Of a DNA stretch of 64,000 nucleotides, positions 29,946 through 55,846 are shown in pieces. The DNA is from Nitrospirales bacterium. GTDB lineage: Bacteria > Nitrospirota > Nitrospiria > Nitrospirales > UBA8639. Positions within the stretch are counted from its first letter, which is position 1; every line of letters begins with the position of its first letter. A program made the position numbers and the translations under genes. The notes beneath the pieces were generated by a model. That model saw only the letters and a program-made list of their open reading frames with translations, was not told where the DNA came from and did not search any database. The stretch lies in assembly GCA_963555755.3 (NCBI GenBank), contig OY820905.2, positions 192,001-256,000 of the forward strand, written 5' to 3'.

Positions 29946-30158
29946 TTTAAAGAAAAACGTTCTGTTTTAATCGATTAGTCGTAACGAAATTGGGTCAGAA
30001 GTAGGGTCAAGCCCTTTTTACTAATATACTACTTTGTGGACGATTCTAACATTCCCTCCGAAAAATGAGACGCGACCTTTCATTTTTTCTATACACCAAA
30101 TTGGATTGCTCCATACACCTCATTGTGCTACTGTCAGTGCTACGAAAGGAGGGTGAGC

Positions 30159-30359
30159 ATGGCACGAACTAATATCGAATTGGAAGACAAACTTGTCAAA
30201 GAAGGGATGAAGGTTTTTCAGTGCAAAACCAAAAAGGAATTAGTGCATCTGGCGCTTCAAGAGTTGTTGAAGAAAGAAAAGCGAAAAGAAATTCTGCAAC
30301 TTCGAGGCAAAGTGAAGTGGGAAGGTAATCTTGATATCATACGAAGGTCACGCCTGTGA
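30159..30359 (+). CDS. vapB: VapB-type antitoxin
   Basis: RTNIELED.LV...TKKELV..AL..L...WEGNL pattern; AGGAGG RBS; GTGA overlap with the PIN toxin gene. Confidence 0.85.
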   Translation: MARTNIELEDKLVKEGMKVFQCKTKKELVHLALQELLKKEKRKEILQLRGKVKWEGNLDIIRRSRL

Positions 30360-30763
30360 TTGTTGTTGATACGACCGTCTGGATAGATTTTTTTAATGGA
30401 GTGGGGACTCCGGAAGACCACCATCTTCAAAAACTTATTTCGGAAGACCGGTCAATTGCGCTGACCGATCTCATTTTCTGTGAAATCCTTCAGGGAATAC
30501 CAAACGACAAAGAATACGAGCGCACACGAAATCTTCTTTTGCAGTATCCCATCTTTCTCATGGATGGTCTTCCTATCTTTGAACACGCTGCGATGATCTA
30601 TCGCGCCTGTCGAAAGCGCGGGCTCACCATACGGAAAACCATCGATTGTTTGATAGCATCCGTTTGTATTGCCAATGATCTAGCCTTGTTTCAAAAAGAT
30701 TCGGACTTTGATTACATTGCCCAGGTCACACCATTAAAAGTCCATCACCCCGTTCCAAGGTAA
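30356..30763 (+). CDS. vapC: VapC PIN-domain toxin
   Basis: VVDTTVWID, EILQG, IDCLIA, D.DF acidic tetrad. Confidence 0.9.
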   Translation: MIVVDTTVWIDFFNGVGTPEDHHLQKLISEDRSIALTDLIFCEILQGIPNDKEYERTRNLLLQYPIFLMDGLPIFEHAAMIYRACRKRGLTIRKTIDCLIASVCIANDLALFQKDSDFDYIAQVTPLKVHHPVPR

Positions 30764-30861
30764 TTCAGAAAAGGGGTCAATCTTAAGAAAAGGGGTCAAT
30801 CCTATTTAATAATGTAATAGGGGGTTGTGGTCCATTCTCACATTCCTACCTTTCCTGCTAT

Positions 30862-31066
30862 TCCGAACCCTAAAACAGGTGGGTAGAGTACTTGAAATAA
30901 TTCACAGATGTATCAAGAACTCTGATCCCTTGATCCTGGGAAGGTAGCCATCTGGCTTTCTGAGGAAATTTCTCTCTTAGGACACGACTGAGTCTTTAAG
31001 GCGGTCCAGACGGGCTTGGTCTATATAGACCCAGGTGGTTTTTTCTTGTGTGACGTTGACAGAGCC
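30862..31066. repeat. Direct repeat of 54282-54484 (NFACT 3' end plus downstream DNA)
   Basis: 205 vs 203 bp; by eye two substitutions and one 2-bp indel. Confidence 0.95.
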
Positions 31067-31188
31067 AGTTGGGGGTCTGGTCTTGCACTGCCCCATTGAA
31101 CGGGTTTGTTGAGTGATGCCCACCCTACAACATTGAAGTCAGCGATATTGCCTTATTTTTTTACAATTTTTTTTAATGGAGACTTAAA

Positions 31189-53282: not shown

Positions 53283-53500
53283 TTCCAATATCTGGCCGGT
53301 TTGGCGGGCAGTGCCATATCCTACTAAAAAGAGTGCACCACCTCCTGGTTGCCTAGAAGAGAAGGGGGCAAATCTTTGGTTGAGAGTTTCGTTTCAAACT
53401 CCTCGCCACACTTTCATCCACTGCTTTTTTTCTGGGAGCGCCATCTTCTCTTCCGAGCAGGGGGCGTAATCTAAAGTTTTAGTCAACCAAAGATTTGACC

Positions 53501-53615
53501 GCATGCCGTCATCGGCGGTGTGTCTAGCGGGTTAAAGTCCCGCGAAAGGAGTTGTTCGTACACCTTTCTAGCACCGGGAAGCAGCGTCTGAGTAATCAGG
53601 GGTTGAAGTTTCCCA
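53501..53615 (+). mobile_element. 5' fragment (115 nt) of group II intron A
   Basis: Matches 48690-48804 and has the same upstream flank; ends 10 bp before a GGGGTCAA motif. Confidence 0.9.
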
Positions 53616-53715
53616 GGAAGGGGAAGGGGTCAAATCTTTGGTTGAGAGTTTCGTTTTGAACTCCTCTCCTCTCTTTTATCCACTGCGTCGCGAAAAGGGG
53701 GCAATCCTATCAAAG

Positions 53716-54281
53716 TTAGCGCGGAGGACCACGTGGCGTGAGCCCGTGGGTGAAAGCGCTCCCCGCTGGAGGCGGGGGACTCCTTGCCAAATGAGCTGTT
53801 CGTGATGACACTAGCGCATGGAAGTTCGCCTCAGTGCCCATGGTGCGTATCAGCATCAATATCATGTGGTGTGGATCCCCAAATATCGCCGACGCATTTT
53901 GCGGGGGGCGATCAAGATCTTTGTGCAGGAACATTTACCTCAGATCCAGCACTATCACCCGGATGTAATTGTCCAACAATGGAGCGTTCAGGTTGACCAT
54001 ATTCATGTGGTGTTGGTCATTCCTCTGAAATATGCGGTGTCGAGCATTGTGGGCAAGATGAAAGCGAATCTAAGTCGGCAACTTCGTCTGCGGTACCCCG
54101 AGTTGAAGCAGGCCTACTGGGGCGCGGTGCTGTGGTCTCCCGGGTTTTTCTCGTCGACAGTTGGGTTAAATGAGGCGGTTATCCGGCGGTACGTGGACCA
54201 TCAAGAACGAGTGGACAAAGGGCACATACAGCTCAAGTTTGAATTTTAAGTGCCACGGGGCGTGAGCCCGTGGGTATCTAC
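53716..54281 (+). mobile_element. IS200-like element (tnpA only)
   Basis: Subterminal hairpins CCACG(T/G)GGCGTGAGCCCGTGG at 53729-53749 and 54253-54273. Exact ends uncertain. Confidence 0.8.
53818..54249 (+). CDS. tnpA: IS200/IS605 HUH Y1 transposase
   Basis: YHVVW.PKYRR, DHIH (HUH), LWSPGFF.STVG, Y...Q. Confidence 0.95.
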   Translation: MEVRLSAHGAYQHQYHVVWIPKYRRRILRGAIKIFVQEHLPQIQHYHPDVIVQQWSVQVDHIHVVLVIPLKYAVSSIVGKMKANLSRQLRLRYPELKQAYWGAVLWSPGFFSSTVGLNEAVIRRYVDHQERVDKGHIQLKFEF

Positions 54282-54394
54282 TCCGAACCCTAAAACAGGT
54301 GGGTAGAGTACTTGAAATAATTCACAGATGTATCAAGAACTCTGACCCCTTGATCCTGGGAAGGTAGCCATCTGGCTTTCTGAGGAAATTTCTC

Positions 54395-55846
54395 TTAGGA
54401 CACGACTGAGTTTTTAAGGCGGTCCAGACGGGCTTGGTCTATATAGACCCAGGTGGTTTTTTCTTGTGTGACGTTGACAGAGCCTGGTTTGGCGCCTTTG
54501 GGTTTTCGCACATTACTTCGCAGCGTATAGATGACCTCGCCTTTACCGCTTTTCCGCAAATCGCTATAAAACAGCGCCAGTGTTGCGGCATCCTTTAATG
54601 TTTCAGACGGGACCTGTTTTTTCTTTTCCAGTTCGATAATCACGTGTGATCCTGAGGTGCCGCGAGCATGGAGCCACATGTCGTCTTGTTTGGATACCTT
54701 GAAGGTCACAGCATCATTATCTTTGGCGCTTTTTCCAACGAGTATTGAAAACCCGTCTTCCGAGAGGTATCGGCGATAGGGTGTCGCTGTTTTCGGTTTT
54801 TTGGATGAAGGCACTTTGGGCTTTGCTAGCTTGAGTGTTGGGTTAGGGAGTTCTGGGTTAGGGATTTCTGTTGGCTTCATCTCGCCACGTTCTGCTGCTT
54901 GAAATTCCTCATTGAGTTTGGCGAGTTCGGTCTGGGCTTTTTCGAGGCGTGGGCGTACTTCGCGTTCGGCACCCGTGAATTTTCGGTGTTTTCGAAAGTA
55001 GTCATTGAGATTCCAGGTTGGGTCTTTCGAGGGGTCTAACGGGAGTGTGAGTTCTGGGAGTCCTTCATCATAGTAATCAATGAGGGTGATCTGGGTTTGT
55101 CCCTTTTGTATCTGGCCCAGTTGCCCTTTGAGGAGTTCCCCGTAGCGGCCATATTCGCAATATCGATGCGCTTTCACAAGGTCTTGTGTGAATGCATTGA
55201 CCCGGCGTTGTGTCTTTTTCATGGCTTTGCGCAAGGCAGCGAGTTGTTGCTCTTGGTGTTGCCGTAGCGCCTGTTGTTGTTCAAGGGCAAGATACGTTTG
55301 TTCCAGCATTCTCGAAATGGGAAATGTCCCTGGTGATGAATCGGATGTGGAATCAGCATCAGACTTTTCTCGGTCTTGTGTGCGATCCATATTGAAATAG
55401 GTCTGGATTCGTTGCGGTCCCTGCCTGTCGGGTTTTAATGATCGAACAACTTCGTTTTTTTGGTTCACGAGGAAAAGATTCGCCGAGCGACCCGTGAGTG
55501 CGACGACAAGAAAAAGCGTTACTTGCTTTACCAAAAGTACAATCAAAACCACTCGATCATCCGGGACCTGCACCACCTGTTCAATCTGAGCGCCGAGAAT
55601 ATGGCTTCGTAAATACTGGCAAAATGGTGGTGGCGTTGGTGGGTTTGGCAGGCGTTGGGTTAAGGCATGGAGTCGTGCTGTTTGCGGGTGGGTGGAGATA
55701 AAGAGTGTGATGGTCTGACCAGGTCGTCTGATTTCAAATGAGAGAGAGTCCGGTAATGGTTGATGAATCTTTTGAATTTTTCCACCGACCAAGGAAGGCG
55801 TGAGTTCCGACAGAACCTGTGAGAGATGTTCGAGAGAGATAGCCAA
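54395..55846 (-). CDS. NFACT-family (RqcH/FbpA-like) ribosome quality-control protein
   Basis: I.KI.QP, F...LR....G, DR, VGKSA.DND, WLHARG..GSHV, VIYT....VRKPKGAKPG.V. Start approximate. Confidence 0.88.
   Translation of the reverse strand: MAISLEHLSQVLSELTPSLVGGKIQKIHQPLPDSLSFEIRRPGQTITLFISTHPQTARLHALTQRLPNPPTPPPFCQYLRSHILGAQIEQVVQVPDDRVVLIVLLVKQVTLFLVVALTGRSANLFLVNQKNEVVRSLKPDRQGPQRIQTYFNMDRTQDREKSDADSTSDSSPGTFPISRMLEQTYLALEQQQALRQHQEQQLAALRKAMKKTQRRVNAFTQDLVKAHRYCEYGRYGELLKGQLGQIQKGQTQITLIDYYDEGLPELTLPLDPSKDPTWNLNDYFRKHRKFTGAEREVRPRLEKAQTELAKLNEEFQAAERGEMKPTEIPNPELPNPTLKLAKPKVPSSKKPKTATPYRRYLSEDGFSILVGKSAKDNDAVTFKVSKQDDMWLHARGTSGSHVIIELEKKKQVPSETLKDAATLALFYSDLRKSGKGEVIYTLRSNVRKPKGAKPGSVNVTQEKTTWVYIDQARLDRLKNSVVS

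Follow-up and report, generated by a model that had tools for sequence, protein, structure and literature searches.

Clustered TIRtron ends and a recurrent join offset 4-5 nt outside them in an accessory island of a Nitrospirales genome

The DNA studied here is a window of 64,000 nt (the whole stretch analysed) from a Nitrospirales bacterium (GCA_963555755.3, contig OY820905.2, positions 192,001-256,000, forward strand; G000:C1:192001-256000, where G000 is the studied genome and G002-G006 and G320 are other genomes compared). A sequence-only reading had proposed that an island in it, at 29990-54484, is a cassette-shuffling system with modules joined at the motif GGGGTCA. We identified this motif as the terminal inverted repeat (TIR) that bounds TIRtrons, and found that the island is probably a pile-up of TIRtron ends. 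Bare coordinates are those of the window and C1: coordinates those of the genome. Negative offsets count nucleotides outside the GGGG of a TIR tip and positive ones nucleotides inside it. F1, F3, F4, F5, F6, F8 and F9 are our own labels for TIR families, and L177, L308, L310 and the like denote individual loci compared. By stutters we mean tandem motif copies with a constant outer start and a variable inner end. The island holds the following features.

29987..30032, plus strand: decayed TIR stutter and solo TIR (GGGTCAAGCC type), the left edge of the island
30033..30767, plus: vapBC unit (Pfam VapB, PIN), cut at -5 of the TIR that follows, 4 nt past the vapC stop
30768..30935, plus: 19-nt stutter and gene-less TIR element, F6, with copies at C1:832618 and elsewhere
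30858..31066, plus: duplicate of the F6 right part and NFACT 3' end (original 54278-54484, 97.6% over 209 bp)
31067..31097, plus: solo F5 TIR with 5-nt outer flank
31106..34535, plus: two lipoprotein-like genes, the second split by IS1595 (32511-33523), its stop lost at the TIR array
34536..34630, plus: seven-fold 13-nt stutter of the F5 TIR (5-nt flank and GGGGTCAG)
34631..36096, minus: IS4-family element (NF033592) in an F5 TIR, with a 10-bp target duplication
36097..36318, plus: remainder of the F5 TIR, F4 stutter and TIR, repeat scrap, and TIR stutter up to the intron; break at -4
36319..38290, minus: group II intron A at TGACC^CC of a TIR
38291..38380, plus: short F1-like miniature, its left tip split by intron A
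38393..38469, no strand assigned: IS91-family scrap, 86-87% identical to C1:498213 and 757992, which adjoin Y2_Tnp matches
38557..39174, plus: TIR-like motif and higBA, the higA stop lying 1 nt ahead of the -5 flank of the next element
39176..39402, plus: degenerate F1-like miniature, F8 TIR (39272) and F6-type right end
39770..47607, plus: Rhs-type gene (SpvB, FG-GAP, TcdB_midN, RHS repeats) with ISL3 inside (41333-42662)
47577..48194, plus: complete post-Rhs gene ("immunity" by position only), its stop inside a TIR outer flank
48190..48221, plus: solo F3 TIR
48320..48535, minus: gene scrap (XRE only as a label of the sequence-only reading), cut at -5 of TIR 48541
48536..48689, plus: stutter and 138-bp F1 miniature
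48690..52655, plus: intron A in the F1 right TIR, itself interrupted close to its 3' end by intron B (50558-52551)
52656..52728, minus: stuttered F1 tip (52688), to which an F6 right-end piece (52699-52723) with its outer flank is joined at -4
52730..52878, plus: Rhs scrap, joined to the F6 tip 5-6 nt outside it and continuing without a motif into a 3' scrap that we take, from its translation, to be glmS-like
52929..53282, plus: 117-aa open reading frame (ORF) with a homologue between two TIRs in G002
53362..53710, plus: F1 miniature, 115-nt intron A 5' piece (53501-53615), F1 prefix and F6 left tip
53711..54280, plus: IS200 (NF033573; tnpA 53818-54249) with its own hairpins, inside an F6 element; left end approximate
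54281..54354, plus: F6 right part, beside the intact NFACT gene (54395-55846, minus)

No family match was found for the lipoprotein-like genes, whose label comes from the sequence-only reading. A 542-aa homologue (P0004) of the second covers both of its pieces and ends approximately where the TIR array starts, and a homologue of the post-Rhs gene (P0002) ends 4 residues earlier than that gene does. This comparison indicates that the post-Rhs gene is complete and the second lipoprotein-like gene nearly so. The Rhs-type gene has a paralogue, 85-89% identical, at C1:1413976-1419502, and carries 177-bp tandem repeats (FG-GAP units) on both sides of ISL3 (40970-43527). Just left of the island, 29395-29615 is paralogous, at 77%, to the start of the Rhs-type gene and the DNA ahead of it (39553-39773), suggesting that an older Rhs gene stood at this site. 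A second TIR-rich island, C1:1408800-1431700, shares vapBC, Rhs and an upstream region with the one described here, and the gene upstream of it is presumably glmS-like.

The motif, its complement or a near variant is present wherever the sequence-only reading had placed it. Exact GGGGTCA occurs at 30773, 30792, 34541-34619 (7 copies, 13-nt period), 36121, 36132, 36302, 38557, 39272, 48541, 48553 and 53626, and its reverse complement TGACCCC at 38374, 52688 and 54343; variants lie at 29992 and 30004 (three G), 31072 (GGGGTCT), 39181 (GGGGCCA) and 48195 (GGGGTCG). The two spacings reported for it, 5 bp past the NFACT duplicate and 10 bp past the intron fragment, were correct. Counting it across the genome, as had been suggested, gave 23 exact matches in the island versus 4.3 expected from the genome-wide rate of 0.175 motif/kb (Poisson P 2e-10). 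When stutters were collapsed, 14 motifs remained against 3.7 expected (P 4e-5), the highest collapsed count among 188 equal-length genome tiles being 13. The island is one of three hot spots of the genome (25-kb bins with 23, 22 and 21 matches), and its matches inside ORFs (42316, 44442, 49484) are probably background. That the motif marks most module junctions was confirmed for many of them, but not for the ends of IS1595, ISL3, IS200 and intron B, the join between the Rhs and glmS-like scraps near 52805, or the inner sides of solo TIRs.

The sequence-only reading had stated that such repeats flank some HUH Y1 genes, and the motif indeed equals the published TIRYT consensus. The passages on TIRtrons in Di Nocera et al. 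2013 (PMC3733652) and Quentin et al. 2018 (PMC6006769) describe a Y1 HUH gene with a C-terminal helix-turn-helix (HTH), located between TIRs of consensus GGGG[AT][CG]A[CG]; these passages hold no data on cut sites, mobility or rearrangements. TIRYT proteins form subclass 2.1 of TnpA-REP (REP, repetitive extragenic palindrome). Among 17 Y1_Tnp matches in G000, a search for Y1 genes flanked by the motif retrieved seven intact ORFs (292-326 aa) framed by TIRs, for example at C1:761600-762615, 490027-491071, 1146649-1147659 and 2922733-2923729. None of the TIR-framed Y1 genes lies within the 64-kb window, all being elsewhere in the genome, and the enzyme likely acts in trans. Of six Y1 proteins scanned, five matched Bac_DnaA_C (2 above the cut-off, 3 just below) and the 231-aa protein did not; a Y1 protein of G002 matched HTH_23/28. 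The best NCBIfam match of the Y1 proteins was REP_Tyr_transpos, below its cut-off.

The TIRs conform to the core GGGGWSA, the eighth base being frequently A in F1, F2 and F6 (consensus GGGGWSAS). Gene-less miniatures of 72-200 bp with TIRtron ends are common in G000, and 103 of 198 TIR ends are solo. The repeats of the island fall into families F1, F3, F4, F5, F6 and F8, of which F1, F3, F4 and F6 have an intact cognate Y1 gene in G000 and F8 only a broken one. Membership in the system of REP doublets (REPINs) and REP-associated tyrosine transposases (RAYTs) was rejected, the flanks being GGGG-tagged TIRs and not GTAG- or CGTC-tagged short palindromes. F9 elements are TIR dimers of 72-77 bp whose ~33-nt spacers all differ (L177-L180; C1:1067280, 1851029, 1949511, 3410806); one of them is possibly inverted in G005, beside a gap of Ns.

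The stutters start at a well-defined point outside the motif. In 63 perfect tandems the start fits -4 in 49, -5 in 42 and either in 61; unambiguous starts numbered 9 at -4 and 7 at -5, and nine control heptamers showed no comparable offset peak. A donor test asked, for 215 TIR ends, how far another copy of the upstream DNA in the genome continues to match. A copy was found for 61 ends and a break called for 51, with 22 breaks at -3 to -5, 1 at -6, 11 at -9 to -17 and 17 at +1 to +6. The last group is almost entirely IS4 insertions, and several of the breaks at -9 to -17 look like unstripped stutters. Upstream breaks therefore fell at -3 to -5 in 22 of 34 cases, versus 28 of 208 in a random control (28 of 242 including all positions). 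By our own reading of the rows, ~14 of the 22 clean breaks join non-TIR DNA. The TIR ends have G at -5 in 86 of 151 cases, positions -4 to -1 being A/T-rich. The outer 4 nt are common to copies of one subfamily in two genomes, indicating that they move along with the element rather than arising as a target duplication. The base at which the partner stops matching was G in 12 of 18 clean breaks (P 3e-4; our own tally), hinting at a weak second-site preference. A fixed short target duplication was rejected, since inward TIR pairs showed only five 6-nt matches, A/T-rich or due to chance, and one 2,026-bp repeat. A fixed joining site on the inner side was likewise rejected, with no peak among the 21 of 103 solo TIRs that had a donor.

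For several joins of the island itself, donor copies document a break at the outer edge. It lies at -5 for vapBC (30767) and for the NFACT duplicate (31066, at TIR 31072), at -4 for the F5 prefix that precedes 36121 and for the F6 piece (52699), and at -5/-6 for the Rhs scrap (52730); the F1 prefix that precedes 53691 belongs to this group as well. The intron piece ending at 53615 also has a donor, and its break at -10 reads as -4 plus a 6-nt stutter. Six more joins (34536, 39176, 39267, 48190, 48536, 53362) have a compatible offset and no close donor. A 96% copy of vapBC at C1:1429486-1430223 continues differently, an environmental contig with vapBC runs on beyond 30767, and another, spanning 29911-30274, contains the left-edge join with 7 differences. 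Contigs from public runs, which may include the source material, span the vapBC/TIR and NFACT/TIR joins without differences, which argues against assembly errors. The block 31067-53690 is flanked by two copies of a ~280-bp stretch that starts at -5 of an F6 TIR. A parallel case is found at C1:4100371-4106386, where 6 kb of cargo between two miniatures is associated with a 2,026-bp direct repeat. The proposal that an HUH enzyme joins DNA at the motif in trans thus held in so far as the motif ends HUH/Y1 elements and the joins keep a constant offset; the break itself lies 4-5 nt outside the motif.

The TIR tip is also the target of other mobile elements. The 5' end of intron A followed TGACC in 12 of 12 copies, in at least three TIR families, and in a second intron family 5 of 5 ends were placed likewise (TGAC-C). 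Of the 5' ends of related introns, at 79 loci in many phyla, 57 could be placed, 37 of them after TG(A/T)CC and many of the remaining 20 at TIR-like variants. A stretch of domain I, GGTCA at 48880, matches the target in 24 of 31 loci scored (14 GACC, 10 GTCC), and at loci with the target TGTCC or CGTCC it reads GGACA or GGACG; this covariation marks it as a candidate exon-binding site 1 (EBS1). Intron-free TIRs were found at matching sites in relatives, and no close relative of intron A was detected in 60 related genomes at E 1e-100. Group II introns usually start with GUGYG; intron A (48690) starts with GCATG and its relatives with GTATG, GTACG or GTTCG. Most of the 14 copies of intron B interrupt other group II introns close to their 3' end, in the region of domain V, forming twintrons, and intron B also occurs as a triple tandem at C1:2160-2166 kb. 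The IS4 element had a 10-bp target duplication in 21 of 21 copies and a TIR core, within 2 mismatches, in 20 of 21. It was present in 1 of 60 relatives and 1 of 300 genomes of the phylum: the G005 copy lies inside a TIR, and the sole readable flank in G320 is G-rich with no clear TIR. Insertion of one IS4 and three intron A copies into TIRs explains four of the island's junctions.

Comparison with related genomes showed changes at some of these ends. G004 is without the island, NFACT lying ~290 bp from the homologue of the gene at 28659-29339; G002 and G003 are without 13-54 kb of the window at this site, and G006 is rearranged there. In a targeted comparison of 21 loci, several were altered, others were unchanged and others had no informative match. 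Deletions or flank swaps ended at -4 (L308, L310), -6/-7 (L323) and -6 (L321). At L310, G006 lacks ~416 bp (C1:1566099-1566514) exactly up to the TIR outer edge, a stretch that, from its translation, we take to be a PIN-toxin-like gene. One F9 site is empty in G006, with ~50 bp of target replaced. The 48320-48535 scrap has a homologue in G005 that likewise stops at -5 of a TIR but is truncated elsewhere, and contigs covering the intact F1 TIRtron depart from its flanks exactly at -4 on both sides. In G002, Rhs pieces between miniatures and a TIRtron break at -5 to -7. This locus (L173:176-7143, G002:C46) holds pieces of different Rhs paralogues between TIR elements and ends in an Rhs tip and a small gene; a role of TIRtrons in Rhs toxin turnover there is possible.

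Taking together the observed TIR identity, join offset, stutters and targeted insertions, we conclude, with a probability of about 0.72, that the island is a pile-up of TIRtron ends to which foreign DNA was joined 4-5 nt outside, by a likely TIRYT nick at -4/-5 on the GGGG strand and a loose 3' end. HUH enzymes leave a 5'-phosphotyrosine and a 3'-OH, and a constant 5' end with changing partners is compatible with a nick at -4/-5 that a 3'-OH then attacks. TIRYT would nick (G)^WWWW-GGGGTCA and remain attached to the 5' end. A 3'-OH produced by short fill-in synthesis at the nick would yield a stutter, and one located farther outside would yield an adjacent deletion. If the two ends of an element joined different sites, the result would be an insertion with loss of target or with a long direct repeat, as may have happened for the ~280-bp repeat of the island and the 2,026-bp repeat at C1:4100371-4106386. 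Cargo would become trapped and trimmed between elements, the toxin-antitoxin and immunity-like genes probably surviving by selection, and the TIR-targeting intron and IS4 would later have lengthened the island at the same sites.

Several points weigh against this conclusion. The cut strand and the chemistry are what we infer from the pattern of joins. About 8 of the 22 clean breaks are TIR-element DNA joined to itself, hence not independent captures. The inner-side joins of solo TIRs are unexplained by the model, and the donor match of the IS91 scrap starts 12 nt outside the TIR, i.e. a break at -12. F5 and F8 are without an intact cognate gene in G000, F5 having one in G002 only. The expectation that breakpoints in relatives fall at the motif was met in part: some targeted loci end at -4 to -7, but a blind comparison with G005 (100 of ~390 contigs, 805 alignment ends) found 2 motifs at -4 versus 2.6 expected; it was underpowered, because 15 of 215 TIR sites were covered. 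Finally, a search for circles or new junctions had been suggested. No circle joint was among the joints listed from contigs of 4 public runs, and neither circles nor new TIR joins were among those listed from contigs of 7 of 23 public runs; both results come from contigs, which drop rare forms.

We considered the possibility that TIRtron ends serve as a platform for HUH-driven gene capture, the single-strand counterpart of the integron, in which TIRYT stacks intact toxin-antitoxin, Rhs-tip and immunity segments at TIR tips, on which a cross-phylum intron lineage and IS4 have specialised. We regard this extension as doubtful; if it were true, these two elements on TIR tips would parallel the group IIC-attC introns on attC. 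A related explanation is that TIR-led modules are dedicated integron-like cassettes, excised as single-strand circles, re-inserted at resident TIRs and selected as an array. It would account for near-intact genes (vapC, higA, the post-Rhs gene, the second lipoprotein-like gene) ending a few nucleotides from a TIR flank, for the inserts stacked between two copies of the F6/NFACT end, for the 6 kb of cargo between two miniatures, and for vapBC, Rhs pieces and the 117-aa ORF adjoining TIRs at several loci and in two genomes. Yet TIRs do not abut stop codons as a rule (6 of 181 versus 143 of 5000 genome-wide, with crude ORF calls), and selection acting on trimmed cargo could be what left the four near-intact genes. 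Most joins fall within genes, at unrelated points, segment ends are loose, and several junctions are motif-less or are ends of the intron, IS4 or other insertion sequences. No module was found twice with both ends equal, nor was any excised circle among the joints listed in the contigs. The cargo is 85-96% identical to paralogues in the C1:1409-1431 kb island, which suggests an older or horizontal origin and not fresh copying. In agreement with the sequence-only reading, there is no intI in the window and no attC in the island (0 core pairs versus ~1.5 expected by chance in a crude RYYYAAC/GTTRRRY scan). An integron integrase above the TIGR02249 cut-off is located at C1:319270-319815 (L330), ~73 kb away; a crude scan of the DNA within 15 kb of it detected no more than 1-2 attC-like core pairs. 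We therefore consider cassette shuffling in the integron sense unlikely.

Alternatively, TIRs might be passive landing pads, the island having been built by TIR-targeting IS4 and introns, ordinary insertion sequences and host recombination, with stutters arising by replication slippage. Four junctions are indeed an intron or IS4 in a TIR, IS1595, ISL3 and IS200 are ordinary insertions, and REP-targeting insertion sequences are known, as described in part of PMC1525189. This explanation appears quite unlikely, as it leaves unexplained the constant -4/-5 start with a variable inner end, the G at -5 and the joins at TIRs free of introns and insertion sequences; moreover, the breaks made by IS4 and the introns fall within the TIR and not beyond it. 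It is highly improbable that another enzyme makes the joins, whether an IS91-family Y2 transposase (15 Y2_Tnp matches in the genome), the IS200 TnpA of the island or the integrase ~73 kb away, given that TIRs directly frame TIRYT genes, that the IS200 element (its enzyme NF033573, without HTH) has its own hairpins and a second 3' copy without TIRs, so that the sequence-only reading was right to doubt that it is the driver, that a crude scan of the island found no attC-like pairs, and that two relatives without Y1 matches had 0 and 4 copies of the tested TIR pattern versus 18 in a relative with four Y1 matches (a small sample).

Two further kinds of repeat occur in the window. At 28360-28610, 29728-29970 and 39421-39560 lie at least two other high-copy intergenic families, genus-wide and unrelated to the TIR motif, and at 26311-28216 a high-copy insertion sequence in which a DruA-like domain is fused to DDE_Tnp_1_assoc (~40 near-identical copies).

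The proposal that TIRtron ends accumulate by nicking 4-5 nt outside the TIR makes a precise and testable prediction from G000 as to cut strand, cut position (-4/-5, usually after G) and product types. It also suggests that TIRtrons have an active part in trimming, duplicating and splicing accessory DNA, for instance Rhs loci and toxin-antitoxin pairs. The intron target, co-varying across several phyla, points to the TIR tip as an old and stable niche for other mobile elements, and the intron family offers a naturally retargeted retroelement family for study.

The TIRtron class was already known, and our elements share its gene architecture, its TIR consensus and the occurrence of TIR repeats as singles, dimers and clusters. 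They differ from the TIRtrons of the published passages in having a functional end 4-5 nt outside GGGG, and in their stutters, adjacent deletions, long direct repeats and TIR-specific parasites. In the literature covered, outside which lay subscription papers and supplements, no account of TIRtron cut sites or stutters turned up, nor any of TIRtrons as targets of introns or insertion sequences; the cut offset, the rearrangement products and the dedicated parasites are accordingly what we did not find described.

The closest mechanistic likeness is with the amplification of bacterial interspersed mosaic elements (BIMEs) by TnpA-REP. In the nick-primed model, as presented in part of Ton-Hoang et al. 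2012 (PMC3333891), an HUH nick provides a 3'-OH primer and attack on the 5'-phosphotyrosine adds a tandem unit; stutters would form likewise by nick-primed synthesis, and flanking genes can be sequestered. In contrast with that system, the ends are non-palindromic TIR tips instead of GTAG hairpins, and the cut is apparently set by distance and a weak preference for G instead of a CT dinucleotide. With IS91, ISCR and Helitrons, which the same paper mentions, the TIRtron ends share one fixed HUH end, a variable far end and the capture of neighbouring DNA. They differ by a Y1 instead of a Y2 enzyme, by two symmetric TIRs, and by a variable partner that lies outside the element as often as inside.

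Integron arrays and clusters of attC sites lacking an integrase (CALIN), to the extent covered by the passages of PMC7923331, resemble the island in their toxin-antitoxin-rich cargo and in a repeated, recombination-like site parasitised by a group II intron lineage. Unlike them, the island has no attC cores, no local IntI and no uniform one-gene cassettes, its cargo is often truncated, and its sites occur in both orientations. The group IIC-attC introns described in the same passages insert into the attC bottom strand at TTGT/T, and REP-targeting elements such as the IS4-family ISRm22 (PMC1525189, seen in its passages on targeting) likewise insert at one position of another element's repeat. 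Here the target is the TIRtron tip: intron A uses TG(A/T)CC^CC, not TTGT/T, its 5-nt candidate EBS1 co-varies with the TIR variants (GGTCA, GGACA, GGACG), and IS4 duplicates 10 bp of the TIR core.

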